DNA of 64,000 bases from assembly GCA_900546515.1 (NCBI GenBank), contig URDG01000001.1:111049-175048 (forward strand), in the 5' to 3' direction. How positions within the stretch are numbered: the stretch's first letter is position 1; each line of letters opens with the position of its first letter. This stretch comes from an uncultured Eubacteriales bacterium. GTDB taxonomy: Bacteria; Bacillota; Clostridia; Oscillospirales; Oscillospiraceae. Shown in pieces: positions 8,605 to 46,200 of the stretch. A model generated the notes under the pieces. It saw nothing but the letters and a program-made list of their open reading frames with translations, did no database searches and was not told the DNA's origin. The translations under genes and the position numbers were made by a program.

Positions 8605-10316
8605 TGGTCACTATATCTGAGCTTCAGAGAAAACGCGCCATAAATATCGTCTGGAACAGTGCCGCACGTTACGATTTTCAACCCGATTTCAAATCCTATG
8701 ACGGCGATGGGCGTGCCGACCTGTACTGGAACTGCATTTTTGGCGCAGCACGGAAGCATTATGACTATGCGCAGTTTGTGCCCTTGTTCCGCGCATTCGA
8801 GCAGTACGAGGATTCAGACACCTATGAGGGGCTGATGTGGCTCGGGCTTGAAAACTGTGTGTACCAGAAAGAACTGCCGGAACGGCCGGCACTTCGCAGT
8901 CTGCGCCAGAAATACGCGCAGGAGATAGTAAAAGAATATGCCGGACATGATGATTTTCATCTCTGCGAGGCGCTCACGTGCGCACATTTTTCTCATGTTC
9001 TGGGCCGCGAGCCTGAAATGAACGGTTATGACCGAAAGCTCCTTGATGAGCTGGAATTCACGCCGGATATGACAACGGAGGAAATAGTCGAGCGTACAAA
9101 AGAGCTTTTCACCCGTTGGTTTCAGATAAGTACAGAGGAACGAAAACGCGCTAAGCGCAGGTTGATCACACCCGCTCTGCATAAACGCGGCAAGCGGCAG
9201 GGGACAAGCTCTCTGCGCCGTTTCGGCCTTGGATTGACAGAACATCCTGAAAACGCATACGGCGGCTCAAGTCAGGGACAGGGGCCGGATGCACAGGTAA
9301 AAACAAAGATGTCTGCGGAAGAACTCCGTTCTTTTATGGAGACAAAATACGGCAAGAGCGCGTTCCCGCAGCGTGAAACAGAGAAAATAGAGCAGAGCTT
9401 ATGCTCCGGCAGCCACGCGGCGTGTCATCTTCTGTTTACTAACGGCGAGAGGGTAGATACTTCTAAGATACAAAACGGCTTTGAGGCTCTCTCTCGCCAG
9501 CGCGAGGCGACGCAAATTGCAAAAAACCGCGCATGCTATGAAGCTGACATATGCCGGAATCGAGCTGCGATCGCGTCGCTTACCGGGAAAATACAGAACT
9601 CCGTTCTGCTTCATCTTCAGCCTGCGCCGGTAAAAGCGAATTCAGGCCGGATAAACGGAAGAATGGCATGGCGTGCGGCAGTGCTGAACGATGAGCGTGT
9701 GTTCATCAAAAATGAGCAGGACGACATGGGTGATCTTGCGGTCGATATTCTGCTTGACGCTTCAACATCACAGAAAAACCGTCAGGAGACCGTATCTGCT
9801 CAGGGCTATATGATAGCGGAAAGTCTGGTCAGATGCGGAATCCCGTGCCGTGTGATGTCTTTCTGCTCAATGACAGGCTACACGATAGTCCGTATTTTCC
9901 GCGACTATGACCGTCCTGCTGACAACAGCAAGATTTTTGAATATGTCTCCAACGGCTGCAACCGGGATGGACTGGCGATAGCGGCGGCGCACTATTTAAT
10001 GAACGGCACGCCGTATGAACACAAGCTGCTGATAGTCCTTTCGGATGTAAAGCCGAACGATGTCGTGAAGATAAATGCCCACGGTTCAGATGAGCCGGTA
10101 CCATATGAGCAGGAAGCCGGGATCACGAATACTGCATTTGAAGTCCGGCGTGCGCGGGCTGACGGGATTTCCGTCGTGTGCGTATTTACCGGTGACGACG
10201 AGGATCTTCCGGCTGCAAAAACAGTTTATGGACGCGACTTTGCGCGCATACAGTCACTGGATATGTTGGCGGACACGGTCGGCAAACTGATACAGAACCA
10301 GATCAAGAATCTATAG
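8604..10316 (+). CDS. vWA-domain protein, NorD/CobT-like partner of the AAA_5 ATPase
   Basis: 570 aa. The C-terminal vWA domain has MIDAS motif DILLDASTSQ (DxSxS) and later LSDVKPND. It is translationally coupled to the upstream ATPase. Confidence 0.8.
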   Translation: MVTISELQRKRAINIVWNSAARYDFQPDFKSYDGDGRADLYWNCIFGAARKHYDYAQFVPLFRAFEQYEDSDTYEGLMWLGLENCVYQKELPERPALRSLRQKYAQEIVKEYAGHDDFHLCEALTCAHFSHVLGREPEMNGYDRKLLDELEFTPDMTTEEIVERTKELFTRWFQISTEERKRAKRRLITPALHKRGKRQGTSSLRRFGLGLTEHPENAYGGSSQGQGPDAQVKTKMSAEELRSFMETKYGKSAFPQRETEKIEQSLCSGSHAACHLLFTNGERVDTSKIQNGFEALSRQREATQIAKNRACYEADICRNRAAIASLTGKIQNSVLLHLQPAPVKANSGRINGRMAWRAAVLNDERVFIKNEQDDMGDLAVDILLDASTSQKNRQETVSAQGYMIAESLVRCGIPCRVMSFCSMTGYTIVRIFRDYDRPADNSKIFEYVSNGCNRDGLAIAAAHYLMNGTPYEHKLLIVLSDVKPNDVVKINAHGSDEPVPYEQEAGITNTAFEVRRARADGISVVCVFTGDDEDLPAAKTVYGRDFARIQSLDMLADTVGKLIQNQIKNL

Positions 10317-10318
10317 TA

Positions 10319-10372
10319 AACAAGTTATGCTCCTGCGAAAATAGCTTTTTTCGCAGGAGCATAACTTGTTTT
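10319..10372. terminator. Bidirectional terminator with a very long perfect stem
   Basis: AACAAGTTATGCTCCTGCGAAA (10319-10340) pairs with TTTCGCAGGAGCATAACTTGTT (10349-10370), a 22-bp perfect stem with an 8-nt loop (ATAGCTTT, 10341-10348). It lies between convergent genes. Confidence 0.85.
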
Positions 10373-10392
10373 GCCTATATGCTTCCAAGTAT

Positions 10393-20334: not shown

Positions 20335-20363
20335 TTGACATATAATTATATTGAAATTATGTT
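20335..20363 (+). promoter_or_regulatory. Sigma-A-type promoter candidate for the recombinase gene
   Basis: TTGACA (20335-20340), 17-nt spacer, TATGTT (20358-20363). Confidence 0.45.
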
Positions 20364-20386
20364 TACTCATTTCCGGAGGGTTTCCA

Positions 20387-21376
20387 ATGAATCTTGACCA
20401 GATCAATGACGTCCCAGACATTCTCATGGAGTTTCTTGAATATCACTCGACCGTGCGCGGTCATTCTGACAAAACCGTATTTGCGTATTACACGGATCTC
20501 AAAATTCTTTTTCGTTATCTCAAACGCCGCCGTCATAATGTCCCGGCAGATACGCCCTTTAATGAGATCGATATTACCGACGTTGACCTTGATTTCATCA
20601 AGGCTATCAAAATTGAGGAGCTTTACAGATACCAGAGCTTTTCTCCAGAATCCGACAGTTCCCTTTCCGCTGCCAGCCGCTGCCGCCGTACTTCGTCAGT
20701 CAAATCTTTTTTTAATTATCTCACGGTAAAACGGCATCTTCTGGAAAATAACGTTTGTCAAGAACTTGACATGCCGAAACGTCAGGCGTCTCTGCCTAAA
20801 TATCTTGAAGAATCCGAATGTGAACGGCTGTTGTCAGCATGCGACGGTAAATATGCATATCGTGATTATGCGATACTGATGCTGTTTCTTTCGTGCGGAC
20901 TGCGCGTGTCGGAGCTTGTGTCTCTCAATCTAACGGATATTTATGACGATCATGTGCGCGTTATCGGCAAAGGCAATAAAGAGCGCGTCGTGTTCTTTGC
21001 GGACGGCTGCCGCGAGGCGCTGGACGATTATCTCGCTGTACGTGACAACGGGAAAATACGCCCTGAAGATAAGAATGCGCTCTTTATAAGCAGCGTCAAT
21101 AGACGCATTACAAGCCGCGGTGTTGAGCAGATGGTGGATAAAAAACTGCTCATTGCCGGGCTGGATGCTTCTAGGTATTCGCCTCATAAACTGCGCCACA
21201 CGGCTGCGACACTCATGCTCAAAAACGGCGTGGATACACGCGCGTTGCAGGAGGTACTCGGCCACAGCAATCTTAATACCACGCAGATATACACCCATCT
21301 TGACAATGCACAGCTGCACGAGGCCGCAATGGCAAATCCCATAGGCCGGAAAAAGAAATCGGAGATCGAGGAGTAA
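20387..21376 (+). CDS. Tyrosine site-specific recombinase, XerC-like
   Basis: The C-terminal catalytic pattern is LRVSE...HKLRHTAATLML...LGHSNLNTTQIYTH. The start is trimmed to MNLDQ..., preceded by GGAGGG. Confidence 0.85.
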   Translation: MNLDQINDVPDILMEFLEYHSTVRGHSDKTVFAYYTDLKILFRYLKRRRHNVPADTPFNEIDITDVDLDFIKAIKIEELYRYQSFSPESDSSLSAASRCRRTSSVKSFFNYLTVKRHLLENNVCQELDMPKRQASLPKYLEESECERLLSACDGKYAYRDYAILMLFLSCGLRVSELVSLNLTDIYDDHVRVIGKGNKERVVFFADGCREALDDYLAVRDNGKIRPEDKNALFISSVNRRITSRGVEQMVDKKLLIAGLDASRYSPHKLRHTAATLMLKNGVDTRALQEVLGHSNLNTTQIYTHLDNAQLHEAAMANPIGRKKKSEIEE

Positions 21377-21381
21377 GCTTT

Positions 21382-23160
21382 TTACAGGACGACGCTTTCT
21401 CCGTCAGCGTTTATATAACCGTTGCGCTCTGCCTTAAGGGCTGCTGTGTCACGTTTTCCGCTCGGCTTCACAGCAAATCCGGTCCGGCATTTATATACAG
21501 CAGGAACTGCATAGTCTTCAAGCAAAGCACGGCAGTTTTCATCTACCCTCTTCACGACAGTTTCAAAGCTTTCAGAGTTGGTGTCATTCAGGATCATGTG
21601 TGCCGCAGGTACAGTAATGCCGTTTATGCTGATGTCAACGACTTCGCAGTCTTTTACCGCCTTGTCCTGTAATATCACGTTTTCTATGTCAAAGTTATAA
21701 ACCGTGGTGTTGTCTGGCGCTATGTAGCAATCAGATGTGCGGCCGAGTACATATACCCATCCGTCCTCATCCACATAGCCAATATCACCTGTGCAGCCCC
21801 ACCGCTTTCCATCCTCAGCAGTGTGGAAGAAAAGTTCTGTTGCAGCGGAATTATTATAGTACATCGCCATTGCAGACGGCGAGACAACGCGCAGCTCCCC
21901 GCGTTCGCCATATTTGAGTTCTTTCCCGGTGTCAGTGTCAAACGCACTCACGGTTACAAACGGCAGTGGAATTCCGGTCGAACCCTGTTTTTCTATGTAT
22001 TCTTCTGCCGTCATATTATTTGTTGTGGTAGTAACTGTTGCTCCAAGCTCACACATTCCCCAGCCTTTGGTCAAAAACTTTTTGCAGTTATGCTCACGCA
22101 GGAACGCATTTATTGCATCCTCAGTTTGAGATAGCAGCTGCTCCCCGCCGGTTATCGGGTAAATCAGGAATGATAGATCCATCTTCTGCAGCGGTTTATA
22201 ATTGACCGAGTGCAGCCACAGGCTTGTTGCTCCAAGCGTAAAATTTGGTTTGAAACGTGCAAGATCATACGCAAAAGTCTCAGGGCTGAATACAGGATCA
22301 AGGATAACAGTCATGCCCATATAAAGCGGCATGAGCATACACACAACATTTCCTGTAGAAAACCACACCGGAACAATGTGCAGGAAACGGCTTTGCCTTG
22401 ACAGCTCTCTTGTCATATATTTATACTGCGTCAGGGTCGCGTTGATTCCATGATTTGTTAGCACAATACCCTTGGATGCACCTGTGGTCCCGGATGAATA
22501 TACCATAACAAACGGCGACGCGGCGTCTCCGGAAACCAATGCTTTTGTGTTTTCTGCACCGTGCTTTATAAAATCGCTCCAGAGTACATACGCTTCTGTT
22601 TTCATTGCTGCGCTCAGTTTATTATCAGGCTTTTCTTTGACGGCTGAAATTATTTTCACCGGAAGCGAGAGCGAATTTGCAGCCGGAATAACTACAATTT
22701 TCTCAATTCCGGTCTGTGATATAACGTCAGAAATGTAAATATACATTTTGTCAAGAACAAAGAGCAGCGTTGCTTTCGTATCATTTATGCGATCCTGAAT
22801 CTGTTCTTTTTCAAAAAGCGGGTTGATAAAGTTCGCTATAGCGCCTATCCTGCTGCACGCCAGCAGCAGATAAACGACCTCCGGCACACCCGCTACGCAG
22901 AAGGCTGCGCACTCTCCTTTTTTCAGTCCATAGGACACAAGCGCATGTGCACAACGTTCGACCTGTTCAAAAAGCTTTTTATACGTTATCTTGCGGCCGT
23001 AGTATTCCAGTGCGATCTCGTCAAGGTGCTCTCTGTTGTTTTCCCAAATATTTTGGTAGACCGTGCAGTCCGGTATCCTTGCGTTGATTGCTTCTTCATC
23101 ATAATACTTCAGCCAGGGCTTGTCTATTGAGGGGTATCCTGTGGTTGTGCATTCACTCAT
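21382..23160 (-). CDS. AMP-dependent synthetase/ligase (acyl-CoA ligase family)
   Basis: AMP-binding motif VYSSGTTGASKGI and later TGDIGYVDEDGWVYVLGR are present. The start is trimmed to MSECTT... (ATG at 23160) because the upstream part of the listed ORF runs through a terminator hairpin. Confidence 0.85.
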   Translation of the reverse strand: MSECTTTGYPSIDKPWLKYYDEEAINARIPDCTVYQNIWENNREHLDEIALEYYGRKITYKKLFEQVERCAHALVSYGLKKGECAAFCVAGVPEVVYLLLACSRIGAIANFINPLFEKEQIQDRINDTKATLLFVLDKMYIYISDVISQTGIEKIVVIPAANSLSLPVKIISAVKEKPDNKLSAAMKTEAYVLWSDFIKHGAENTKALVSGDAASPFVMVYSSGTTGASKGIVLTNHGINATLTQYKYMTRELSRQSRFLHIVPVWFSTGNVVCMLMPLYMGMTVILDPVFSPETFAYDLARFKPNFTLGATSLWLHSVNYKPLQKMDLSFLIYPITGGEQLLSQTEDAINAFLREHNCKKFLTKGWGMCELGATVTTTTNNMTAEEYIEKQGSTGIPLPFVTVSAFDTDTGKELKYGERGELRVVSPSAMAMYYNNSAATELFFHTAEDGKRWGCTGDIGYVDEDGWVYVLGRTSDCYIAPDNTTVYNFDIENVILQDKAVKDCEVVDISINGITVPAAHMILNDTNSESFETVVKRVDENCRALLEDYAVPAVYKCRTGFAVKPSGKRDTAALKAERNGYINADGESVVL

Positions 23161-23175
23161 ATTTCTTTTCTCCCA

Positions 23176-23205
23176 ATAAAAAAGTGCGCAGCCGAAGCTG
23201 CGCAC
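23176..23205 (-). terminator. Leader terminator immediately upstream of the ligase start codon
   Basis: On the minus strand, GUGCGCAGC-UUCG-GCUGCGCAC is followed by UUUUUUAUU. It ends about 16 nt before the RBS (GGGAGAAAAG) and ATG. Confidence 0.75.
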
Positions 23206-23226
23206 GAAAAACGCAGTCTCAGTTGC

Positions 23227-23341
23227 GCCACACAACCATCTGACAATTCGTAAATGCGAATGCAGAAATAGAGCCTGCATTTTTACCAAAAGTAAAAAAC
23301 ACAGCACTCGCTACGAATTGTCCAATATTAGGTTGTGTGGC
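23227..23341 (-). promoter_or_regulatory. Highly structured 5' leader element (riboswitch/attenuator candidate)
   Basis: Two nested perfect 11-bp helices: GCCACACAACC/GGUUGUGUGGC (23331-23341 with 23227-23237) and GACAAUUCGUA/UACGAAUUGUC (23312-23322 with 23242-23252). They enclose two hairpins (UUUUUAC/GUAAAAA and AUGCAG/CUGCAU). The element sits between a promoter and a terminator. Confidence 0.5.
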
Positions 23342-23347
23342 AGAATA

Positions 23348-23376
23348 ATATTATCAAATCCACAGGGAAAAATCAA
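23348..23376 (-). promoter_or_regulatory. Sigma-A-type promoter with extended -10 driving the structured leader
   Basis: Minus strand: TTGATT (23371-23376), 17-nt spacer ending in TGA, TAATAT (23348-23353). Confidence 0.5.
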
Positions 23377-23425
23377 TAGAAAAGTGCGGTCCGAAGTGTT
23401 GTATCTTCGGACCGCACTTATTTTT
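23372..23425 (-). terminator. Rho-independent terminator after the radA-coupled gene
   Basis: AAGTGCGGTCCGAAG (23382-23396) pairs with CTTCGGACCGCACTT (23405-23419), a 15-bp stem. The minus strand continues with UUUUCUAUUGAUUUUU. Confidence 0.8.
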
Positions 23426-23427
23426 AG

Positions 23428-24198
23428 TCAATGCCGCTCAATATTTTCAATTATCTGTATCGCGCTGCCTATATCAAACACCGGCAAGCCGGTCAGATAC
23501 ACGGCATGTACACCGCGTTCTTCGAGGAAATCTAATATACGCGCCTTATCAGAATGCGCATCAAGAGTCCCGGTAAATGCCAAGGCGTCTGTAGACAGCT
23601 TGAAGCCCGCGCCGCCGAGAAATCCGTACTCGAAGCCGTCGAGTGAAACAAAGCCATTGCCTATCAACAGCACGTCAAGCCCGGCAGCCATAGCCGCAGC
23701 AGCAATTCCCCTGTCCTGCGTAATTATCGAGTGCTCGTCAATGGGTAAAACCGAACATTTTGAATAGCCCTGCTTAACAGGCACACCGTAAAAACCGCGG
23801 CCATTCGTTAAACAATCGACAACACGCTTATACGCTGTTTTCTGCCCGTATATAAGGTGTTTTCCGACGGCAGCAATGTTTAGCTGCGCATCGTCCGGGT
23901 ATTTCAAGGATTGTGCGATGTCCGCATAGTGCAGCGAGACGCCAAACGATTCAAGCTGCGCGGCGAACGCTGTCCCGCGCAGATATGGCGCGAGACATAC
24001 CGTCTTCCCGCCAGCATGAAAAACCGACAGATCCGCATGTCCGGACAGTCTGGGATCGACATGCGGATTATCAGGCACATACAGGGGGAAGATACCGCAC
24101 TTCTTTACCGCTTTATCAAGCGCTTTTGAATATTTTTCGCCGATTATAACCACTTTTGCTTTTGACGGGAGGTTAGGCAAATGTACAAACTCAGCCAT
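23428..24198 (-). CDS. Conserved hypothetical protein, possibly a guanidino-modifying-enzyme (GME) fold
   Basis: 256 aa and cytoplasmic. The start overlaps the radA stop by 8 nt. The RLSGHADLSVFH motif recalls amidinotransferase-like folds. The family name is recalled, not verified. Confidence 0.5.
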   Translation of the reverse strand: MAEFVHLPNLPSKAKVVIIGEKYSKALDKAVKKCGIFPLYVPDNPHVDPRLSGHADLSVFHAGGKTVCLAPYLRGTAFAAQLESFGVSLHYADIAQSLKYPDDAQLNIAAVGKHLIYGQKTAYKRVVDCLTNGRGFYGVPVKQGYSKCSVLPIDEHSIITQDRGIAAAAMAAGLDVLLIGNGFVSLDGFEYGFLGGAGFKLSTDALAFTGTLDAHSDKARILDFLEERGVHAVYLTGLPVFDIGSAIQIIENIERH

Positions 24199-25567
24199 TT
24201 TTGCCCAGCACCGCGCGTATAGCTTCTCTTACATTCTTTACGGGTATTACGTCCATTCCGTCAAATTGTTTTACCTCATCCCGTACATGCGCAGGGATAA
24301 CACAGCGCTTGAAGCCCAACCGGGATATTTCTGTGAGCCGCTGATTGAGCGCACTGACAGAACGTACCTCGCCCGAAAGGCCGACCTCGCCGATCGCGGC
24401 AAGGTCAGCGCCCAGCGGACGGTCAAGGTAGCTGGAGGCAATGGCGAGTATCGTCGCAAGGTCTGCTGCAGGCTCATCAAGAAAAAGCCCGCCGATGACG
24501 TTTATGTATGAGTCGCAGTTGGAGACCGGCAGCCCGCCGCGCTTCTCCAGCACTGCCAGCAGCATTGCCGTGCGGTTATAGTCGATGCCGTTGCTGCGCC
24601 GCGCGGCGGAATTGTAACCGGCCTGACACAGAAGCGCCTGAACCTCGGCCAATATCGGCCTGGTTCCCTCTATAACGCAGGCCACGCAAGTCCCCGGACT
24701 ATTCTCGGGCCGGCCTGAGAGCAGCATTTCTGACGGGTTTTCAACGCACCTCAGGCCGTTGTCTGCCATTTCAAAAACGCCGATCTCATTTGTTGAGCCA
24801 AATCTGTTCTTTGCCGCGCGCAGTATTCTGAAGCTGGTGCTGCGCTCGCCTTCGAAGTAAAGCACACAGTCCACCATGTGCTCGAGCACCTTGGGACCTG
24901 CTATACTTCCCTCCTTGTTTATGTGTCCGACCACAAACATGGTCAAACCCTTATCCTTTGTCACACGCATCAGACGCATCGTGCATTCACGTACCTGCGT
25001 GATACTTCCCGGCGCAGAGCTGACCTCCGCGTCGGAGACGGTCTGTATAGAGTCAATGATAACGACGTCAGGCGCGACCTCTCCGATACAGGCTATTATG
25101 CTGTCAATATCAGTCTCTGCGAGCACGTATATATCCCCGCCGATGCCAAGCCTCGTCGCGCGCAGCTTGAGCTGACGCTCGCTCTCTTCGCCTGTGATAT
25201 ACAGCACACGCCGTCCTTTGTCGATCATGCCGCACATTTGCAGCAGCAGCGTAGATTTACCTATGCCCGGCGCGCCGCCCACAAGAACAAGAGCGCCGAC
25301 AACCGCCCCGCCTCCGAGAACACGGTCAAACTCCGAAATGCCGGTAGAGAATCTTATTTCGGCGCTTGTGTCAAGCTCGGATATTTTCTTAGCCGACGGA
25401 ACGGCTGCTCGTGCACCGCGCGCACCTCGTCCTTTTGTGCCGGCGCTGTCGAGCTTGAGCTCCACAAGCGTGTTCCACGCGCCGCAGGCCGGACATTTCC
25501 CGGCCCAGTTCGGCGTTTCATTGCCGCACTCCGAGCAGCAATATACTGTCTTTTGTTTTGCAGCCAT
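24191..25567 (-). CDS. radA: DNA repair protein RadA
   Basis: N-terminal zinc finger CSECGNETPNWAGKCPACGAWN, Walker A GAPGIGKST, KNRFG motif and a C-terminal Lon-like domain. Confidence 0.95.
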   Translation of the reverse strand: MAAKQKTVYCCSECGNETPNWAGKCPACGAWNTLVELKLDSAGTKGRGARGARAAVPSAKKISELDTSAEIRFSTGISEFDRVLGGGAVVGALVLVGGAPGIGKSTLLLQMCGMIDKGRRVLYITGEESERQLKLRATRLGIGGDIYVLAETDIDSIIACIGEVAPDVVIIDSIQTVSDAEVSSAPGSITQVRECTMRLMRVTKDKGLTMFVVGHINKEGSIAGPKVLEHMVDCVLYFEGERSTSFRILRAAKNRFGSTNEIGVFEMADNGLRCVENPSEMLLSGRPENSPGTCVACVIEGTRPILAEVQALLCQAGYNSAARRSNGIDYNRTAMLLAVLEKRGGLPVSNCDSYINVIGGLFLDEPAADLATILAIASSYLDRPLGADLAAIGEVGLSGEVRSVSALNQRLTEISRLGFKRCVIPAHVRDEVKQFDGMDVIPVKNVREAIRAVLGKNG

Positions 25568-36346: not shown

Positions 36347-37290
36347 TTACTCGACGACCATCTTACCGTCTGCACCAAACTCATAACTTGCTTCCTTCAT
36401 CAAGCCATTAGTCTTGGTAATCCAATATTTCTGGCCGTGGACAACTTCTCCGCTTGTCTTGACATAGTAGTAGCTGCCTTTGATATTGATCAGGCCTGCA
36501 TAATATCTGCTGCCGTCCTTGTAGTAGTACAGGCTGCCATCTTCTTCAACTATGCCGTCTTTTACCAAATCTCTGAGGATCATCTTGCCATCGTTGTCGA
36601 ACTGATATGTACCCTGCTTTATTGGCACACCATTTATTGTTATACCGTTGGTCTCCGTGATCCAGTAGCTCATACCGCAGACAAGCTTTCCGCTTAAAGT
36701 TCTCGCATAATAATAGCTGCCATCATATTCAAATAATCCACGTCCGGTCTTAACGCCATCAACAAAGTAATACAGTCCGTCAGCGCTGTCAGCCTGCTGA
36801 ATACCTTGTTTATCAGTATCCTTATCATGGACAATTATACCGTCATCTCCGGGGACATACCAGATGTTTGCGGGCAAATTAAGTCCGTTTCTATATTCTT
36901 CAGTGAATCTTAATATCTGACGATTTTCACTGTAAACAACTGCTTTACCCTCATCTTCACTATCGAAGAAGTAGTAGTCCTTAACGCCATCCGTTATCAC
37001 AAGCTGGAGTCCGGCATTGACATTGACTTTGCCGTTTTCCACCCAATAGATAGCGCTGCCGTCATTGATGGGGCCGGTATGATCGCTCTTGAAGGAACCT
37101 GTATTCTCGTCAAACAGATAGCGTCCCGTTGCTGCGGAACCATCCTGTGCGGGTATCTCGCCCGACAGGCCCTTAACAACATAGCTGCTCTCATCGAAAT
37201 AGTACCACGCGCCGTCTATCTGTTTCCAACCGGGGACGGCCTTTATGCCATCAGCCAGATACGTTCTGCCGTTGGCATCATCAAGCCAGC
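36347..37290 (-). repeat. C-terminal cell-wall-binding (choline-binding-type) repeat region of the 2494-aa protein
   Basis: Repeated GW/YYY aromatic motifs: GWKQIDGAWYYFDESS, LYYFVDGVKTG, GSYYYARTLSGKLVCGMSYWITETNG and GSLYYYKDGSRYYAGLINIKGSYYYVKTSGEVVHGQKYWITKTNGL. Confidence 0.75.
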
Positions 37291-40200
37291 CGGTGAAAAC
37301 ATACTGTGCGGTATATTCGGTGCCCTGTGCCGGGGTCTTGTTGGGAAGCTCGGGGCTCCAGCCAGTGAACTTGAATACGCCGGTATAGCTTGCGCCGTCA
37401 AGCTGCTTGGCACTTATGCTGATCTCTGTGGGAATCACGGGAACGTCAATCGCAGCATCGCACTTCGACGTGATGGTTGCACTTGCATCTTCATAATCTG
37501 CGTCCTTGTAATTGAAGGTCAGGGTTATATCATTCGCAGAATAGTGTGCGTACAGCGTCAACGCGGCCTTGGGCATCACATATCCATCAAGGTCGATCGC
37601 TTCGCCGTCGCCAAGCGCACCCGTGCGCCATTCAAGCGTGTAGCCGGGTTTGGATTCCTGCGCAGATATATATGACTTGAGCAGACTGCCCCAAGGCACA
37701 TTGATGCCATCGCTTATATACGCGCTGCCATCGTCAGTCAGCAGTGTCAGTTTATATTCTGCATTTTTCCACTGAGCAACAACTGAAAGATCATGCGCAG
37801 GCATTGTAACATTTGCGGATGCGGCCAGCGTAGGATACTTAGTATCACTGCTGTCCACCCAGCCATCGAAAACATAGTCAGCTCTCGCGGGATCTTCAAC
37901 ATCTATGACGCTGCCGAATGTTACATTGCTCTCCCTGCTCTTAGAACCGTCACCATAGTCGAGCACGAGCCTGAAAGTCTTCGGGGTCTCGGTGTAATAT
38001 GCCGTGTAGACCGCTTCACCGGAAACTGTGGCGCCATCTGCAAGGATATTGCCACTTGCATCCTTCCATCCGGCGAATGTGTAGCTGTAGCCGTCACCGT
38101 CGGGTCTCGTCGGAGTAACACCGGTGTATTTGAGCGTAGAGCCATACTCTGCATTTTCCCGCTCGATCACAGTTCCATCATAGTTATTCCATGTAATCAG
38201 GCATGTATCCGGGATCCATTTTGCCGTGAGCATAAGATCTTCAGCAGGCATGGTATTGCTCTCAAACCTGGTCTCTTCGATATACCAGCCGCCGAAGGTA
38301 TAACCGGTCCTGCTTGGACTCGGAAGAGTGATCGTCGAATTATAGTCTGCTGTAATACTTTCAGTCATCGGGCCTCCGTTGCCGTTAAAGCTTATCGTAT
38401 ACTTATTGACCGTCCAGAAACCGTACAACTCAATATTTCCGGCAGGCATGGTATCCGGCAGAGTATAAGACTTTGTATATTCTGCATCGCTATACCAACC
38501 CTTGAAAGTATAGCCGGTCTTATCGGCACGTATATTTACATCAGCTATATTAGCGCCATACGTGACAGAATACGTCTCAAGGTCATTTATCCTGCCGTGA
38601 ACCGTTATCGTGTAGGTATTGATCACAAATTTGGCATTCAGCTCAATATTTCCAGCAGGCATGAGTCCGCCAGCCGGAATGCCGTCCCATCCGGTGAATG
38701 TATAGCCTTCAAGCACAGGTGTATATTCTTCTATGCTGCTGTTGATCTCAGCACCGCAGTGTAATTCAACAGTGTGCCAAACAGCCCCATTAACCTTCAG
38801 CGTTACCGCAAAGTTTATAGCGCTGAACTTTGCGTTTATGGTGATATCCTCAGCGGGCATGTGTATAAGATCTGTATCCCAGCCGGTAAAGTTGTACCCC
38901 TCCTTGGAAGGAGCTGCGGGCGCAGGTATTGGCTGGCCATATGTCACATCTTTTTCTTCATACACTTTACCGTCAACATAGAACGTAGCCTTATAGGTGT
39001 TCGGCGTCATCTTTGCATAAAGGACAATGTCGCTTGCCGGCATGGTATCGGGATAGGTATATTTGTCTCCGGTGCAGCCGCTATTATCATACCAGCCGCC
39101 GAACGTATGTCCGGTAATTTCAGGAGTACCCGTGTACTTATCGTCATCGCTTATATTATCACCGAAGTGCTTGACACCAGACTCATGTATCTTTTCGCCG
39201 TTTACCATATATATGATACGGTACTCTTTTTGCGTCCAGCTGGCATAAAGTGTGAGGTCTTTGCTTGCACTAAACTTAACGCCGGGAAGATATACAAGTT
39301 TACCGTCTCCATCGACCCAGCCGTTGAAGGTCCAGCCTTCCTTTGTGAGTGTCGGCGCAGTAACTGTATCACCGTGAGAATATGTGCCGCCCTCAACCTC
39401 CGTGTCATTATCCATAAACTTCAGGCTGTATTGATTAGATCTCCACTTTGCGGCCAGAGTGAGGTTTTCGGCAGGCATTGTTTCGGGGATTTCAGCATAG
39501 GTCGTTTCGTTTTCGCCTGTTATCATCCAGCCGTCGAAGGTGTATCCCTCTCTCACGCCGCAGTCGAACTGACTGCTGTCTATCGTGTCGCCAAACTTAA
39601 GACCGGTTATTACAGTGGACACACCTTCCTCGCGTACAACAGTTATCGTGAAGTAACGTGTTGTCTCCTCATACTGTGCTGTATATGTACGCTCGCTTGC
39701 ATCTTCTATTTTCTCCGGTACAGGATTCCAGCCGGTGAATGTATAAACCGTGGTTGCTGTCGGGGCCTTTGACGGAGTACCCGTATATTGGGGTATTGTG
39801 CCGTAGTCAACGTAGGCTACTACGTTCTTCTCCGGGTCATTTTCATCAATTACCCATGTAACCTTGTGCTGCGTGGTGCTCTCATTGAACACTGCCGTAT
39901 AGGTCGTATCAGCATCAGCAGCAGTGGGTTCAGGCTGCCAGTGATCAAAGGTATACGTACGTTTCACGGTTACTTCCACAAGACTATCGGTATTGGAATA
40001 CGCAGGAATAGAGCCCTTTGTAACATAAACAACTTCTGATGTAGTTTCCTTACTGGAAGGCCAAGTTATTTCCCAAGTGATCTTTACGCCTGTACGCGGG
40101 ATCTCCTCGCCCTTCTTAAGAAGAGTGTTGCACACTGAGCAGTAAGTATCGCCGGTATAACCGTTCTCAGAAAGGGTCGCTTCTTTCGCGTTACGAATTT

Positions 40201-43200
40201 CCTCCGTGTGACCCTTTGCGGGAACCACGGTCTGAGCGACGAGAACCTCGTTGCAGACGGAGCAGTGCTTGCCCTCGGTCTTGCCCGTCTCCGTGCACGT
40301 TGCTTCTACCGCCGCGTCTATGACTTCCGTGTGACCCGTTGCGGGAATCTCAGTCTGAGCGACGAGAACTTTGTTGCAGACAGAGCAGTGCTTGCCCTCA
40401 GTCTTGCCCGGCTTCGTGCACGTTGCTTCTACCGCCGCGTCTGTCACTGTAACATGACCCTTTTTGGGGATAACGGTCAAGCCGGAAAGAGTGGCACCGC
40501 AGACTGAGCATTTTGTTCCGGCTTCATAACCGGCCTCAGTGCAAGTAGCAGGCTTCCCAGGCACCTCAACTGAAGTATGGCCTGTTGCCGAGATTGCTTC
40601 AGTTTTTGTTTCATTGCACACTGTGCATGTGTAGGTCTTTACGCCGTCCTCGGTGCAGGTCGCAGCCGTTGTAACCTTACCTTCGTCCCAAGAGTGACCC
40701 TTTGCGGGAATCTCAGTCTGAACAACGATAACCTCATTGCAGACGGAGCAGTGCTTGCCCTCGGTCTTGCCCGGAGTTGTGCATGTTGCTTCTACTGCCG
40801 GGTCTATCACTTCCGTATGGCCCGTTGCGAGGATGCCCTCGCCATCAGCAATTTTTTCGCCGCAAGTCTTGCAGTAAGTATCACCAGTGTAGCCTTTTTC
40901 GGTGCAGGTTGCAGCCTTGGCACCACGGACTTCGGTCTCACCATGTGCACATTTCCACTGTGCATAGAGGGTAATATTTTCCGTTAAAGCAACTTTAGTT
41001 CCAGCAGCATAAGCTGTACCGGGATTATCAGTGGTCGGTGCTGCCGCAGTGTTCCATCCGGTAAATGTATAGCCCTCGCGTGTGAAGGTATTGGCGCTGA
41101 TGGTTACTTCAGTTCCCTTTTTAACCGTCTGCGCATCCATAGTGCCGGTGCCGCCGTTTGCGCCATAGGTAACAGTTACAGCCTCAGCCCAATTTGCATA
41201 AAGGGTAATATGAATTCCTTTTTCCTCGAGCTGGCCAGCGGTAAGTGTGAAGCGGTCTTTATCAAGGAAATCATCTGTACCGCTGTCTACAGAAAATGCC
41301 CAGCCGGTAAACATGTACCCATCTTTTGTGAATGTGCATGCAGGCAGAGAATTATCGGCTGCCGGAACTACACCGTTTACGATATCATAAACCACAGGCT
41401 CCATAGCATCGGCGCCGCCGTTTGCGTCAAACGAGACCTCGACCGCCTGTTTCCACAGCGCATAAAGATCTATAGAGCTGTTATACTTCTCGCCCTCATT
41501 CGCTTTGAAGATATCCTCTGTTATCTCCGCGCCGTCGGCAAGATCCGCCTTTTCAGCGGTATCCGACTTGCCCCAGCCAACAAAAAGCTGATATTCTCCA
41601 TCTCTATTAAACGGGGATACGCCATTTGTAGTTGTTTCTTTCTGAATAGTCGCGATAGTATCGAGTTTTGCACCCTTAAAGTCTGTTATCTCCTGCTTAT
41701 AAACATTATCAACAGGTGCTCCGCCTTTTTCATAGTTTGCATGGAAAATCACGCTCCATGCTTCTCCGCCCCAGAAGCCATTGACATAGTTAATGGTATC
41801 GCCGGCGCTTGCGGTCGCGGTTTCGGTGTAGGTTCCGTTTGCATTATGCAGCTTGGCAGCGGTGATGGGGATGGTCACCGCACTATTGCCATTTGCATTA
41901 TACTGATAGGTTGCGGTCGCCGTGCCAGGTGTGCCCTGCTGAATGTACTTGCCGGTGCCATTGCTGGAGCAGATATCTGCACTGCCATTGGTAGTGTAGA
42001 TGGCGCCAATAGCCGTTACGCTGCCGTTCACATCCATCTTCGCATCAACCAAGTCTTTATCGGAGCGGTTGTATGCCTTACCCGGCGCATAGGCCACAGA
42101 CTTAAACTTGCAAGGACCCCAGACGAAGTTGTCGGAGTTCCACTCATCGCTGTCATAGAAATAGATATTCTTCCCGCTTGCAACCGTCAGACCAGCGCCC
42201 TCCGCAATATTGACCTCAACGCCCGCCAGCAGTGCCGCGTCCTGATTGATGGTCACATTTCCGGACTGGATATTGATGGTGATGTTGTTGGTGATAGGCA
42301 GTACGTAGCTTGCAGAGTTGACATTCATGCTCGCAAGCTTTAGCGACAACGTGTTCAATGCCGCCTCGCCGTTTACTGTGAATACAAGGCGATCCGTCTT
42401 TTCATCGTAATCCTTAGTAAAGCTACCGGATTCCACTTTGAACATACCGGTGTCGCCAATGAAATTAATAGCAGTAGTATATGTGCTCTTCATTGCATAA
42501 ACGCCGCTATAAACCTGTTCGTTAGCGCCGGCATTCAACGTCAAGGGAACTTCGATGTTTTGTACGAAGTACTGCGAAAATGGGAACACCCCATGGCCCA
42601 TGCCGGAAGATGCGCCGCCGCCGCGGAAGTCTGCAATCTGATAGAATTCGTACACCGTAGCGCCGGATTCCGCCAGAACAGAGCCGCTGCCGGAGATAAA
42701 GCCCCATGCATAGAGATTACCGCCGTTCTTGACCGTGATGGAACTATTGTCCGCCATTTTGATGTATCCATAATCACCAACGGGACGTCCCTGCTCACTA
42801 CCGCCAGCAGCAAAATATCTGCCGCCCAGGCTGATGGCGCCATTGACGGTAATGGACGTGCCTTCGCTCATCGTCAGCGTCCGGAAAGGATTAGACGCGG
42901 GAGTCGTCCGAATCGCCGCAGGAGCATCCGTATACAGTGTCCCTGCCGCGTCGAAGGGGATCAACAGCGTGATTCCCGCCGGGATGGTATAAGTACCGCT
43001 GATTGAGCCATCAGTAGCCAAGGTAATCTTGGACTGGCCGTTTGCCTGTGCATAGGAAACCGCATCACCCAAATCGTCAAACCGCTGGCCGCCGGTTTCA
43101 AACAGGGCCGCCGTTTTACTTGCGAACCGCGCTGTGATGGTGCAGTCGCTTTCAATGTTCAGCGCAGCCTTTGCAGACGTGCTGATATATTTCCCGTTAG

Positions 43201-43831
43201 AAGCATTATACCAGCCCATGAACTGATAACCAGCCGCCGGGGTTGCTACCACATTATAAGCAGTCATGGCGCTTTGCGTTTTGCTGTATTCCTCGGTAAT
43301 GGTGTTTCCGTCTACTGTATAAGTACCGTTTTCAGCAGGCTGGAAAGTCACAGTCGCAGTAACGTCGCTTACCAGAACCACATTGGTAAGGGTAATCTTA
43401 GTGGCAACAGTACTGCCGGATTTGATGTATACTTTAACGGACTCGTTTGCTGCCAGTTCCTTGGTAAAACTGGCACCCGAAGAAACTTCTTTACCATCCA
43501 CCTGAATCGTTCCGCTATTTTGCTCAATAGCATAGTCAAAGGAAAGGGTCGCTGTTGTCGACTTCTTATTTATAATTGTCAGTGTGGATATATAGGATGT
43601 ATCGCTGCATGTTCCGCCTGTGCTGGTAACTGAACCGGTAATGGTTGTACCCGTGGCCGTCCATGCATCATCTGCGTCACCAGTAAAACTTAGTCCAATG
43701 TTCTCATCGGCCAGACCGGTCACGGTGCCGCTGATCACTGCATAGGCCGGAATCTCAAATGCAGGCAGAAGTGACAGCACCATGAGAAATGCAAGGGTAA
43801 GTGACAGAAAACGCTTTATAACAGTTTTCAT
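36347..43831 (-). CDS. Giant secreted, wall-binding, multi-repeat surface protein (2494 aa)
   Basis: SPase I signal peptide (LLPAFEIPAYA-V). The roughly 680-aa N-terminal region is Gly/Asn/Thr-rich and beta-helix-like. Listeria-Bacteroides-type B repeats (GYTFTGW..LYAxW) are followed by seven Cys-rich repeats and about 13 more B repeats. The C-terminus carries aromatic cell-wall-binding repeats (GWxxxDGxWYYF, YYYV...YWITKTNG). Confidence 0.85.
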   Translation of the reverse strand: MKTVIKRFLSLTLAFLMVLSLLPAFEIPAYAVISGTVTGLADENIGLSFTGDADDAWTATGTTITGSVTSTGGTCSDTSYISTLTIINKKSTTATLSFDYAIEQNSGTIQVDGKEVSSGASFTKELAANESVKVYIKSGSTVATKITLTNVVLVSDVTATVTFQPAENGTYTVDGNTITEEYSKTQSAMTAYNVVATPAAGYQFMGWYNASNGKYISTSAKAALNIESDCTITARFASKTAALFETGGQRFDDLGDAVSYAQANGQSKITLATDGSISGTYTIPAGITLLIPFDAAGTLYTDAPAAIRTTPASNPFRTLTMSEGTSITVNGAISLGGRYFAAGGSEQGRPVGDYGYIKMADNSSITVKNGGNLYAWGFISGSGSVLAESGATVYEFYQIADFRGGGASSGMGHGVFPFSQYFVQNIEVPLTLNAGANEQVYSGVYAMKSTYTTAINFIGDTGMFKVESGSFTKDYDEKTDRLVFTVNGEAALNTLSLKLASMNVNSASYVLPITNNITINIQSGNVTINQDAALLAGVEVNIAEGAGLTVASGKNIYFYDSDEWNSDNFVWGPCKFKSVAYAPGKAYNRSDKDLVDAKMDVNGSVTAIGAIYTTNGSADICSSNGTGKYIQQGTPGTATATYQYNANGNSAVTIPITAAKLHNANGTYTETATASAGDTINYVNGFWGGEAWSVIFHANYEKGGAPVDNVYKQEITDFKGAKLDTIATIQKETTTNGVSPFNRDGEYQLFVGWGKSDTAEKADLADGAEITEDIFKANEGEKYNSSIDLYALWKQAVEVSFDANGGADAMEPVVYDIVNGVVPAADNSLPACTFTKDGYMFTGWAFSVDSGTDDFLDKDRFTLTAGQLEEKGIHITLYANWAEAVTVTYGANGGTGTMDAQTVKKGTEVTISANTFTREGYTFTGWNTAAAPTTDNPGTAYAAGTKVALTENITLYAQWKCAHGETEVRGAKAATCTEKGYTGDTYCKTCGEKIADGEGILATGHTEVIDPAVEATCTTPGKTEGKHCSVCNEVIVVQTEIPAKGHSWDEGKVTTAATCTEDGVKTYTCTVCNETKTEAISATGHTSVEVPGKPATCTEAGYEAGTKCSVCGATLSGLTVIPKKGHVTVTDAAVEATCTKPGKTEGKHCSVCNKVLVAQTEIPATGHTEVIDAAVEATCTETGKTEGKHCSVCNEVLVAQTVVPAKGHTEEIRNAKEATLSENGYTGDTYCSVCNTLLKKGEEIPRTGVKITWEITWPSSKETTSEVVYVTKGSIPAYSNTDSLVEVTVKRTYTFDHWQPEPTAADADTTYTAVFNESTTQHKVTWVIDENDPEKNVVAYVDYGTIPQYTGTPSKAPTATTVYTFTGWNPVPEKIEDASERTYTAQYEETTRYFTITVVREEGVSTVITGLKFGDTIDSSQFDCGVREGYTFDGWMITGENETTYAEIPETMPAENLTLAAKWRSNQYSLKFMDNDTEVEGGTYSHGDTVTAPTLTKEGWTFNGWVDGDGKLVYLPGVKFSASKDLTLYASWTQKEYRIIYMVNGEKIHESGVKHFGDNISDDDKYTGTPEITGHTFGGWYDNSGCTGDKYTYPDTMPASDIVLYAKMTPNTYKATFYVDGKVYEEKDVTYGQPIPAPAAPSKEGYNFTGWDTDLIHMPAEDITINAKFSAINFAVTLKVNGAVWHTVELHCGAEINSSIEEYTPVLEGYTFTGWDGIPAGGLMPAGNIELNAKFVINTYTITVHGRINDLETYSVTYGANIADVNIRADKTGYTFKGWYSDAEYTKSYTLPDTMPAGNIELYGFWTVNKYTISFNGNGGPMTESITADYNSTITLPSPSRTGYTFGGWYIEETRFESNTMPAEDLMLTAKWIPDTCLITWNNYDGTVIERENAEYGSTLKYTGVTPTRPDGDGYSYTFAGWKDASGNILADGATVSGEAVYTAYYTETPKTFRLVLDYGDGSKSRESNVTFGSVIDVEDPARADYVFDGWVDSSDTKYPTLAASANVTMPAHDLSVVAQWKNAEYKLTLLTDDGSAYISDGINVPWGSLLKSYISAQESKPGYTLEWRTGALGDGEAIDLDGYVMPKAALTLYAHYSANDITLTFNYKDADYEDASATITSKCDAAIDVPVIPTEISISAKQLDGASYTGVFKFTGWSPELPNKTPAQGTEYTAQYVFTGWLDDANGRTYLADGIKAVPGWKQIDGAWYYFDESSYVVKGLSGEIPAQDGSAATGRYLFDENTGSFKSDHTGPINDGSAIYWVENGKVNVNAGLQLVITDGVKDYYFFDSEDEGKAVVYSENRQILRFTEEYRNGLNLPANIWYVPGDDGIIVHDKDTDKQGIQQADSADGLYYFVDGVKTGRGLFEYDGSYYYARTLSGKLVCGMSYWITETNGITINGVPIKQGTYQFDNDGKMILRDLVKDGIVEEDGSLYYYKDGSRYYAGLINIKGSYYYVKTSGEVVHGQKYWITKTNGLMKEASYEFGADGKMVVE
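37291..40084 (-). repeat. Array of about 13 Listeria-Bacteroides-type B-repeat domains
   Basis: Units of about 70 aa recur, ending in (Y/F)xFxGW...(L)YAxW or similar. Examples: FTGWNP, FDGWMI, FNGWVD, FGGWYD, FTGWDT, FTGWDG, FKGWYS, FGGWYI, FAGWKD, FDGWVD, FTGWSP. Confidence 0.75.
40085..40951 (-). repeat. Seven tandem 39-41-aa Cys3-His repeats
   Basis: Unit consensus: GH-x8-9-ATCTxxG-x5-6-C-x2-C-x11-13-GH. Three units are near-identical at DNA level with a 123-nt period (40204-40326, 40327-40449, about 40690-40812). Confidence 0.85.
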
Positions 43832-44626: not shown

Positions 44627-46200
44627 TCACAGAATTATTTTGCCATCGTCGGCAAAAGTATAGCTTTTTTCAGGCAGCAGTCCATTGGTCTTTGAGATCC
44701 AGTAATTTTTACCATGGATAACTTCGCATGATGAATTGACATAGTAATAATCATTATCTATTTTTATCAACCCAGCATAGGTCAGCTTGCCGTTCTCGTA
44801 GTAATACAGGCTGCCGTTCTCTGCAACTATACCGTTCTTTACTTCAGGAATGGGCGTCGGATCTACCGGCGTCGTCGGCACAGGTGTCGGATCTACCGGG
44901 GTCACAGGATCCGGGTCAAGTATCTTACCTGTCTCATCGAAGGTATAGCTCTTCTCCTTGAGCAGACCGTTGGTTTTCGTGATCCAGTATTTGCGTCCGT
45001 TTACGATCTCACCGCTGGTCTTTGCATAATAATAATTTCCGTCGATCTGGATAACACCGGCATAGGTCAGCTTGCCATTCACGTAGTAATACAGGCTGCC
45101 GTTCTCTGCAACTATACCGTTCTTTACCTCAGGAGTCGGCGTCGGGTCTACCGGGGTCGTCGGCACAGGTGTCGGAGTCGGCGTCGGCGTGCTGCCGAGA
45201 ACCATCTTACCGTCTTCATCGAACTCATAGCTGCCTTCCGGCATCAGGCCGTTAGTCTTGCTGATCCAATACTTCTGATTATGAATTACTTCGCAATTTG
45301 ATTTTACATAGTAGTAGCTGCCGTTGATCTCAATCAGGCCTGCATATGTCTTCACGCCGTCAACATAGTAATACCACGTTGTCTCGGTCTCTTTGACTAT
45401 TCCGTTTTTCGCCGGATCGGCAATTTCAGGATTTGTCATCCTTCCCTCTTCGTCAAAGTGATAGCTCTTTTCAGGCATCAGACCATTGGTCTTGCTGATC
45501 CAATAATCACGGTTTTTGATCATGTAATGATTGCTTGTAAAGTAATAGTAATAATCGCCAATCTTTACAAGTCCCGGAGAATCAACGCGCACACCATTAT
45601 TCACCAGGTATGTATAACCGTCTGTATGCGTATAAATGCCATCAACGTCCTTGAGCCATACACCGTTTTCGTCAAAGAGATATGTGCGAACCTCTCCGCC
45701 GTTCATGCCGATCACGCGGGCATTGTGGAACCCAGTGGCAAAGTATGCATCTCTGTCCGCATAGTAATTATTGCCGTCGAGTTCGATCCATCTGTTGCGT
45801 ACCCAATCCATTGCCCATCTGTATCTTGTGCCCTTTTCATTAGTGACAAGATCACCGCGCGTAAGCACCTTATTCACAAACAGGAAATGGAAAGACGAAA
45901 TCGTCTGTTCGCCATCTACCGCCTCAAACGTTTTTTCATTAAAGTAATAATAGTTGTCGCTGCCGTTTTCCGTGATCATGCGCCATCCGCTCTTGAGTTG
46001 GCCTTTATACGCATAATAGGTATTGCCGTCATACTCAAAGAGCCCTGTCACTTTGCCGATACAGTCACCGTTATTATCAAACCTGTACCAATATTTGGTT
46101 TCAGGATCTTCATGTCCCGGAACCTCGTTTATACCCGTAACCGGCTTATTGTTTACAAAATAGTACAGGGCCTCCCCTGCGCTCCACCAGCCTTCTCTGG
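44627..46200 (-). repeat. Cell-wall-binding repeat region with Pro/Thr linkers
   Basis: Four modules of about 65 aa (KNGIV.E.GSLYYY.NGKLTYAG.I.I...YYY....GE...G..YWI.KTNGL..E.SY.F...GK) are separated by TPVDPTPVPTTPVDPTP-type linkers. A DNA direct repeat, 44776-44895 versus 45061-45180, is roughly 90% identical by eye. Confidence 0.8.

Follow-up and report, generated by a model that had tools for sequence, protein, structure and literature searches.

Within a 64-kb window of DNA from an uncultured Eubacteriales bacterium (64,000 nucleotides (nt) of contig URDG01000001.1, assembly GCA_900546515.1), the gene for a 592-amino acid (aa) ANL-family acyl/aryl-CoA ligase (21382–23160, minus strand; PF00501 at 1.4e-62) is preceded by a structured leader with its own promoter and intrinsic terminator. 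Here we describe this leader, which is a real folded and conserved RNA structure, together with the family of related leaders to which it belongs. All leader coordinates are those of the minus strand of the window, read 5' to 3', and conserved segments are written as RNA. The leader RNA is ~165 nt long, and the unit runs from the promoter through a 115-nt rod (helices P1, P2 and P3) and a terminator to the ribosome-binding site (RBS) of the ligase.

A sigma-A type promoter can be read in the sequence at 23348–23376, its position supported by a family-wide TGnTAnnnT motif: the -35 element TTGATT (23376–23371) is separated by a 17-nt spacer from the -10 element TAATAT (23353–23348), with an extended -10 TG at 23356–23355. 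A simple promoter scan did not list it because it matches the consensus at 8 of 12 positions. The rod is closed by P1, in which the 5' strand GCCACACAACC (segment a, 23341–23331) forms 11 perfect base pairs (bp) with the 3' strand GGUUGUGUGGC (23237–23227); the latter and its tail GCAACU make up segment h (23221–23237), which is also the 5' strand of a predicted antiterminator. A conserved asymmetric internal loop, UAAUAUUG (23323–23330; family consensus nAAUAU in alignment A3, see below), leads into P2, whose 5' strand (23304–23322) comprises P2a GACAAUUCGUA (23322–23312), 11 perfect bp with UACGAAUUGUC (23252–23242), and P2b GCGAGUGC (23311–23304), which pairs with GCAUUCGC (23263–23256). 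The 3' strand of P2 (23242–23263) reads GCAUUCGC, a bulge and UACGAAUUGUC, and a GCGA/UCGC extension is also present. The A/U-rich hairpin P3 (23280–23299) consists of UUUUUUAC (23299–23292), the loop UUUUG and GUAAAAA (23286–23280), and is followed by UGCAGGCUCU (23279–23270), unpaired in the comparative rod structure.

Downstream of the rod, the intrinsic terminator (23178–23205) is formed by the hairpin GUGCGCAGC-UUCG-GCUGCGCAC (23205–23184; 9 bp, 7 of them G-C, by terminator scan; -17.4 kcal/mol) and a U6 tract (23183–23178). The RBS and start codon of the ligase (23158–23174) come directly afterwards, with GGGAG at 23174–23170, beginning 4 nt past U6, and the ATG at 23160–23158; the leader thus has the hairpin and U-tract of an intrinsic-terminator attenuator immediately 5' of an open reading frame (ORF). 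A preliminary description of this locus had named the promoter, two 11-bp helices with the GCGA/UCGC extension, the P3 hairpin and the terminator ahead of the RBS, and all of these were recovered on re-reading the sequence. Its view of the leader as a separate transcription unit is likewise borne out, both by the promoter, leader and terminator of its own and by the 15-bp terminator of the upstream operon (23419–23382, minus strand; terminator scan), which lies just before the leader promoter. The 11-mer arm is unique within the window, and a covariance model of the leader, R1, has one match there (130 bits, E = 7e-23).

The fold is far more stable than expected from composition: the minimum free energy of the 186-nt leader is -75.9 kcal/mol, compared with -46.0 ± 4.0 kcal/mol for 200 shuffled sequences (z = -7.4). 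For comparative evidence, 46 non-redundant members of the short type were aligned with MAFFT (A3); from this alignment RNAalifold recovers P1, P2b and the terminator, with compensatory changes in 16 of the 26 predicted pairs. When P1, P2b, P3 and the terminator are considered together, 94.4% of the cells in A3 are paired and 18 pairs have changed on both sides; all measures of pairing exceed those of 500 out of 500 shuffles, and in slid controls pairing falls to 29–59%. A set of 100 distinct sequences shows compensatory changes in 25 of 32 pairs, a count from a model-fitted alignment that is biased towards the model. By helix, P1 is 97–99% paired, with compensatory changes in 6–7 of 8 pairs, P2b covaries in all 8 pairs, and P3 has 89–91% of its cells paired. 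Conserved loops (AAUAU, UUGGU, AUUUUG and AGCAA) are set in a domain whose peripheral stem is variable, and P1, core and linker show more sequence conservation than pairing requires.

Two hairpins had been placed at the junction inside the rod. One of them, P3, is conserved, whereas the other, AUGCAG-N9-CUGCAU, is peculiar to the window copy and has no conserved counterpart in the family, which instead pairs GUGYGC with GCAUAC, so that P2b extends the rod, and leaves YGCAGGCUCU single-stranded.

A second set of pairings competes with the rod. The core AAAAAYGCAGGCUCU, made up of the P3 3' arm and the nucleotides that follow it, is complementary to the linker GGAGCUUGCGUUUUU between P1 and the terminator. 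In the window, the 5' strand of this alternative helix, AAAAAUGCAGGCUCU (23270–23284), overlaps the P3 3' arm, and its 3' strand, GAGACUGCGUUUUU (23207–23220), includes GAGACUGC (23220–23213); the helix has 13 pairs with one internal mismatch and a computed energy of -14.6 kcal/mol. It measures 14–15 bp in all 88 family representatives, and 89% of its cells are paired in A3. Its variable part co-varies, as seen in CUUC/GAAG at locus L029, CUUGA/UCAAG at L068 and a matched one-nucleotide deletion at L059, and cognate strands of this part pair better than non-cognate ones (-7.7 vs -6.0 kcal/mol, p < 1e-4). The distance from P1 to the 3' strand of the alternative helix is constant, with a median of 4 nt (interquartile range 4–5) regardless of a 5'-half length that can be anything between 31 and 145 nt. 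In every one of the 88 representatives local structure sequesters 4 nt or more of the 5' strand, and this is achieved in two ways. In subtype A (GCSACRCAA-type P1) the A-run is hidden in P3; in subtype B (GCCAAAC-type P1) it is displayed in a loop and the next segment is hidden, the element AUAAAAAUG occupying the hairpin loop and the GG of the P3 loop UUGG being replaced by GA. That one competition is built in two different ways argues for a switch over a static fold.

The second predicted alternative involves the terminator. Segment h, the P1 3' strand with its tail, mimics the terminator 5' arm and could pair with the terminator 3' arm; the preliminary description had suggested such an antiterminator between GUGGCGCA and UGCGCAC, and the suggestion holds up in the computed energies. 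The duplex (h:T3) is predicted at -11.5 kcal/mol in the window, and across the family cognate strands average -10.75 kcal/mol vs -9.3 kcal/mol for non-cognate ones (permutation p < 2e-4), an effect that each subtype also shows by itself (A, p = 4e-4; B, p < 2e-4). By computed pairing, then, the window leader would also have the mutually exclusive pairing of an attenuator, with a terminator strand shared between the two states. The mirror-image antiterminator, in which the P1 5' strand pairs with the terminator 5' arm, was considered and rejected, as the pairing is weak and absent in subtype B; the asymmetry between the two mirror pairings fits selection for the antiterminator, which would also account for a terminator stem that is conserved in sequence. 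The same conservation of the stem is seen in sets assembled without selection on the terminator pattern. Support for both alternative helices consists mainly of conserved complementarity and of the tests of cognate against non-cognate strands.

Three further devices were tried and set aside. A nested, non-pseudoknotted alternative helix would cost ~20 kcal/mol as a ground state. A U.A-U triple helix between the A-run and two flanking U-runs is not universal, since subtype B has no first U-run. A leader peptide was also rejected: the transcript begins at P1, and the frames that open from a 5' NUG share neither length nor stop codon.

To survey the family more widely, we used a DNA pattern derived from the conserved 3' module, which yielded a metagenome set of at least 120 stretches, nearly all containing the whole architecture, and a viral set of 19 contigs, to which an aptamer-only pattern added 3 more. 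All 22 viral contigs are full-length R1 matches and come from the same habitats as the copies in Clostridia. The phage collection yielded two unannotated faecal contigs with the leader, and the plasmid collection gave no leader match. Each copy is a complete promoter-leader-terminator-RBS unit, as follows from two features: in 70 of 88 representatives P1 is preceded at 4–6 nt by the end of a TGnTAnnnT extended -10, and 115 of 134 copies have an ORF that begins on the same strand within 60 nt downstream (median 20 nt), with none in the other 19. Among the matches listed, the downstream products fall into 45 mutually unrelated Pfam families, the commonest being BspA-type leucine-rich repeat (LRR) proteins (8), SHOCT (5) and XRE-type helix-turn-helix proteins (4), followed by WG repeats, acyltransferases and SLH (3 each); ABC ATPases, Zn-ribbon, Ltp lipoprotein, SPFH, ricin lectin, CotH, DnaJ and CHAP also occur, many of the proteins have no Pfam domain, and the leader precedes a ligase in 2 of ~120 metagenome copies. 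Enrichment for secreted or membrane proteins is mild (40/94 vs 16/53). No protein is consistently adjacent to the leader among the examined loci.

Several loci carry leaders in tandem (L093, L125 and L172), and both flanks and leaders are mosaic between loci. At L125 (498–914) the first leader is followed by only the 5' part of an XRE gene and the next leader by the whole gene, apparently a tandem duplication by recombination between leaders. At L093 (1–280) two leaders lie 234 nt apart, the second with its own promoter, and no credible ORF appears to separate the first leader from that promoter and the leader behind it. At L172 (1905–1980) a Gut-1 RNA (RF01706; 54 bits, gathering score 50) is located between two leader copies. 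In pig-gut metagenomes the read depth over the terminator module is ~16-fold that of the flanks, and contigs break there. An Illumina adapter abuts the leader 3' module at the end of the L094 contig (near 1379–1436), which is an assembly artefact. Low-depth metatranscriptome contigs cross the terminator into the coding sequence, both in the window (23027–23238) and at L099, so that read-through molecules seem to exist; no terminated RNA species was seen among these contigs, which are too sparse for it.

The relation of the leader to the ligase itself is loose. We located 80 orthologue loci in species-representative genomes with an alignment of homologues, a genome scan with the single ligase protein having given no match, and R1 finds the leader at 17 of them and not at the other 63. 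The genomes of the 17 positive loci bear the titles Acutalibacteraceae, Ruminococcaceae, Ruminococcus, Oscillospiraceae, Candidatus Avispirillum, Eubacteriales or unclassified Clostridia/Clostridiales, and no Lachnospiraceae-titled locus among the 80 has a leader. The ligase has one relative at 99% identity and then none above 58%. At the 99% locus (L001) the leader is identical save for a C-to-U change at 23213, which turns a G-C pair of the alternative helix into G.U and thereby keeps it, and the three closest homologues after that (58, 56 and 55% identity) have no leader. At L061, L062 and L066 the leader precedes an acyltransferase (Pfam) that is itself upstream of the ligase, and at L067 it lies further upstream, across a gap with no called ORF. 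This patchiness indicates a conserved element that is not tied to the ligase. The interpretation in the preliminary description is partly supported: the structure is indeed conserved, with abundant compensatory changes, but the implied link to the ligase finds no support. Judging from where its copies are found, the leader seems to be a general on/off switch and not a ligase-tied sensor.

The RNA matches no family in Rfam 15. Rfam 15 at gathering score gave no match anywhere in the window, and at E ≤ 10 the region 23000–23500 returned only chance miRNA and plastid hits; in 20 related loci no Rfam 15 hit coincides with the leader, and in 10 loci a threshold of E ≤ 1 gave none either. These results agree with the preliminary description, which had seen no T-box or other motif that it could name: there is no Rfam T-box match, and the downstream genes lie outside amino-acid metabolism. 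Literature searches by topic and with exact conserved strings found no description of the leader, and no matching RNA appears in the candidate papers, which dealt with gut structured-RNA catalogues, 50 bacterial genomes and AcrIIA22 hypervariable islands. On these searches, the leader family is a large one that is absent from Rfam 15 and the searched literature. Its proposed logic (anti-antiterminator, antiterminator, terminator) is a known one, its implementation is unusual and its input is probably global.

How might such a leader work? We put at about even the chance that the family consists of multi-state transcription attenuators that are OFF by default and respond to a shared signal. We have shown which parts are present, how they are conserved and covary, which alternative pairings they allow and which genes they precede; the sequence of steps and the kind of sensor are inferred, as follows. 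The transcript would start a few nucleotides before P1 and fold into the rod of P1, AAUAU internal loop, variable P2 and A/U-rich P3. With P1 closed, the GUGCG...CGCAC hairpin and U6 would terminate transcription before the RBS, and this would be the default state because the naked RNA is by far most stable as rod plus terminator. For read-through, the P1 3' strand would pair with the terminator 3' arm instead. A second competition would decide whether the core AAAAAYGCAGGCUCU pairs locally, in P3 and its neighbours, or with the linker GGAGCUUGCGUUUUU, 4–5 nt past P1. The geometry of this alternative helix appears incompatible with a fully closed straight rod; the helix would nucleate at an exposed toehold or loop, displace P3, loosen P1 and free the P1 3' strand, the balance being set by a signal common to all copies. 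We slightly favour a small ligand or second messenger, acting directly at the conserved loops and junction, over a protein, in view of the large conserved domain, the variable peripheral stem, the conserved loops and a spread of genes like that of cyclic di-GMP (c-di-GMP) riboswitches; an RNA-binding protein or a small RNA would be nearly as likely a sensor. Taken to its full extent, the proposal would be of a new riboswitch-like class that senses a global signal (second messenger, nucleotide or ion), in which toehold displacement of P3 by a 15-bp helix frees a terminator-mimicking P1 strand, and which controls an accessory or surface regulon in Oscillospirales-type gut Clostridia and on viral contigs; we offer this version only tentatively.

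Several observations weigh against an attenuator of this kind. Naked-RNA thermodynamics favour rod plus terminator, the nested alternative helix having to be forced at ~20 kcal/mol, and a cost of this size means that the ON state requires a factor or kinetics. The alternative helix and the antiterminator are mostly conserved in sequence, and their column-wise covariation is modest. The search pattern itself partly imposed the constancy of the 3' module among the metagenome copies; the ligase-linked and aptamer-pattern sets, which are unbiased in this respect, show the same module. The RNA evidence from metatranscriptomes consists of low-depth contigs that may contain DNA. Finally, some copies are degenerate: L134 (1525–1609) and L180 (176–269) retain only the linker, the 3' strand of the alternative helix and the terminator, and L160 (1525–1642) has kept P1 and lost the A-run core.

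The need for an active factor also bears on who the sensor might be. The same RNA architecture could be read by a macromolecule, with an antiterminator protein or a trans-acting small RNA holding P1 open by binding the P1 5' strand and AAUAU loop, or the GGUAAAAAYGC element. Default-OFF thermodynamics would call for just such a factor, the sequences of P1, core and linker are conserved beyond pairing needs, AUAAAAAUG is presented in a hairpin loop in subtype B, and the regulon is heterogeneous, as for a global regulator. However, a domain of ~115 nt with a variable stem and conserved junctions is more aptamer-like than RAT, ANTAR or PyrR sites, no protein is consistently adjacent, and no complementary sequence, and hence no trans partner, was found elsewhere in the window; we regard a macromolecular sensor as possible but doubtful. 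It is unlikely that the locus is primarily a small RNA gene, whose ~165-nt product acts in trans or as a sponge with incidental read-through into the downstream gene. Such a gene would fit a complete promoter and strong terminator at each copy, the 19 copies of 134 that have no ORF within 60 nt, the high sequence conservation and the first leader of L093, which apparently serves no credible ORF, yet an RBS and ORF in the same orientation follow most copies at a median of 20 nt, the tandems resemble tandem riboswitches, RNA contigs cross the terminator, and there is co-variation between the P1 3' strand and the terminator 3' arm, which would be pointless in a mere terminator. Much the same difficulty confronts a constitutive, non-sensing leader, that is, a 5' stabiliser, insulator or damping cassette spread by recombination: P1 does sit at the 5' end of the transcript, as stabiliser hairpins do, and the mosaic flanks and leaders, the L125 duplication and the copies on viral contigs suit a spreading cassette, but two mutually exclusive sets of pairings are conserved by different implementations in two subtypes, and we consider such a leader distinctly unlikely. 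Both the small RNA gene and the constitutive leader leave the conserved competing helices unexplained.

The position of the leader directly upstream of the ligase, and of the acyltransferase or gap before the ligase at L061, L062, L066 and L067, would suit a riboswitch for a metabolite of the ligase pathway, and fatty or aromatic acids and acyl-CoAs had been put forward as candidate ligands. The distribution of the family speaks strongly against this link: the leader is missing at 63 of the 80 loci, the three closest homologues have none, and behind the metagenome copies found by pattern ligases are rare (2 of ~120) and Pfam families many (45), leaving a ligase-pathway sensor with minimal likelihood. 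The last possibility is that the repeat acts as DNA, as a miniature inverted-repeat transposable element (MITE), a REP-like palindrome or an attC-like site near a Xer-type recombinase. The P1 arms do look like terminal inverted repeats, a tyrosine recombinase gene adjoins the ligase, and the element is multi-copy, with the raised depth and assembly breaks described above; in this sense the preliminary description, which had allowed that the inverted repeats might prove to be a scattered MITE-like element, was half right. MITE behaviour is not seen, however. The orientation to ORFs is fixed (115 of 134 copies), promoter, U-tail and RBS lie on one strand, the copies differ by many compensatory changes (25 of 32 pairs) instead of being near-identical, and the G.U pairs can form from just one of the two strands, with ~30 bits for the reverse strand vs 137. 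The window holds one copy in 64 kb. For an attC site, the arms GCCACACAACC/GGUUGUGUGGC have no GTTRRRY/RYYYAAC boxes, the copies bear promoters, and the recombinase is XerC/D-like and scores 86 bits with an integron-integrase model whose cut-off is 265. A DNA-level repeat is therefore barely plausible, and we return to a default-OFF attenuator as the preferred reading.

The surrounding genes are consistent with a Clostridium-type host. The Xer-type tyrosine recombinase (20351–21376, plus strand) converges on the ligase, their stop codons 5 nt apart, and falls below the XerC/XerD equivalog cut-offs; the integron-integrase model quoted above is TIGR02249. Upstream of the leader, radA and a DUF6873 gene (23428–25567, minus strand) overlap by 8 nt and look like one operon, and the same-strand upstream genes (DUF6873, radA, cwlD-like and spoIVA) point to a spore-forming Clostridium-type host, which the sequencing runs place in the pig gut. 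The substrate of the ligase is left unassigned, as its closest solved structures, FadD-1 (3g7s, 4e-32) and MenE, are of low similarity and all NCBIfam hits are far below cut-offs. At L224 (1–4782) the 58%-identity ligase lies in an operon that also encodes two acyltransferases of the PlsC type, a hexapeptide transferase and a protein with WG repeats; together with the acyltransferases before the ligase at L061, L062 and L066, this hints at a role in lipid or envelope acylation for this ligase family. In several genomes, either a tRNA gene or, on the opposite strand, an M-box riboswitch is found 130–500 nt upstream of the leader-ligase unit: L055 (2012–2185), L006 (2032–2105), L017 (1815–1903) and L029 (1990–2069). 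Elsewhere in the window, two genes for giant predicted surface proteins on the minus strand encode 2494 aa (36347–43831), with at least 7 Listeria-Bacteroides (Flg_new) repeats and InlB B-repeats, and 1623 aa (44627–49498), with a NAGPA phosphodiester glycosidase domain; they share C-terminal DNA repeats (families D1, D3 and D6), and neither is preceded by a copy of the leader. The longest inverted repeat in the window is a palindrome at 10305–10384, with 40-nt arms, no spacer and 83% complementarity.

Oscillospirales-type Clostridia are dominant and poorly tractable gut commensals, and the recurrence of one conserved leader before dozens of unrelated genes suggests an undescribed regulon and signal. 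Candidate members include BspA-type LRR proteins, SLH and CHAP wall proteins, Ltp-type lipoproteins, XRE regulators and Zn-ribbon or SHOCT membrane proteins. With its defined promoter, its defined terminated and read-through products and mutations whose compensatory partners are clear, the RNA lends itself to testing. The leader provides a new orphan regulatory RNA with which to look for ligands or proteins, and might be used as a portable default-off cassette in non-model Clostridia; its annotation also explains assembly breaks at the repeated 3' module, and the distribution of the family corrects the natural but wrong inference that it senses a substrate of the ligase.

A close parallel in regulatory logic is the three-helix attenuator (anti-antiterminator, antiterminator, terminator) of the pyr leader of Bacillus subtilis, controlled by PyrR. 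There, as proposed here, an upstream structure (here P1) sequesters the antiterminator strand, the antiterminator shares a strand with the intrinsic terminator, and the outcome hinges on the stability of the first structure. Unlike the pyr leader, the leader described here has no PyrR site and does not match the Rfam PyrR model; it possesses an additional alternative helix of 14–15 bp, the 5' strand of its predicted antiterminator imitates the terminator 5' arm and so pairs with the 3' arm, and the genes that it precedes are functionally unrelated. Terminator-type purine and SAM-I riboswitches, whose P1 3' strand switches into an antiterminator, resemble it in their P1-closed, aptamer-like domain, in their variable stems beside conserved loops, in the U-run and terminator located directly downstream, and in the occurrence of tandem copies. 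The differences are the lack of any Rfam 15 match, unusually long and stable helices, a terminator conserved in sequence, and gene associations that give no clue to a metabolite.

With respect to gene distribution, the c-di-GMP riboswitches of Clostridia (GEMM-I and GEMM-II) are found in many copies before heterogeneous surface, envelope and accessory genes. The leader shares this heterogeneity, as expected for a global signal, but has no similarity to them in sequence or structure and no match to their covariance models. In the ZTP/pfl riboswitch and the cobalamin kissing loop, a 3' segment before the terminator likewise pairs with a loop or strand of the sensing domain; the corresponding pairing here is 14–15 bp long and competes with a local hairpin, a pattern that seems closer to strand displacement than to a short tertiary pseudoknot. 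The lambdoid PR'-tR' region, with its Q- or put-type processive antitermination, also combines a strong constitutive promoter, a short structured transcript and a strong terminator, beyond which gene expression needs antitermination, and our leader is similarly found on (pro)phage contigs. Homology to Q, N or put was not seen, though no search aimed at it was made. The conserved antiterminator pairing, however, argues for a local RNA switch over a modified polymerase.

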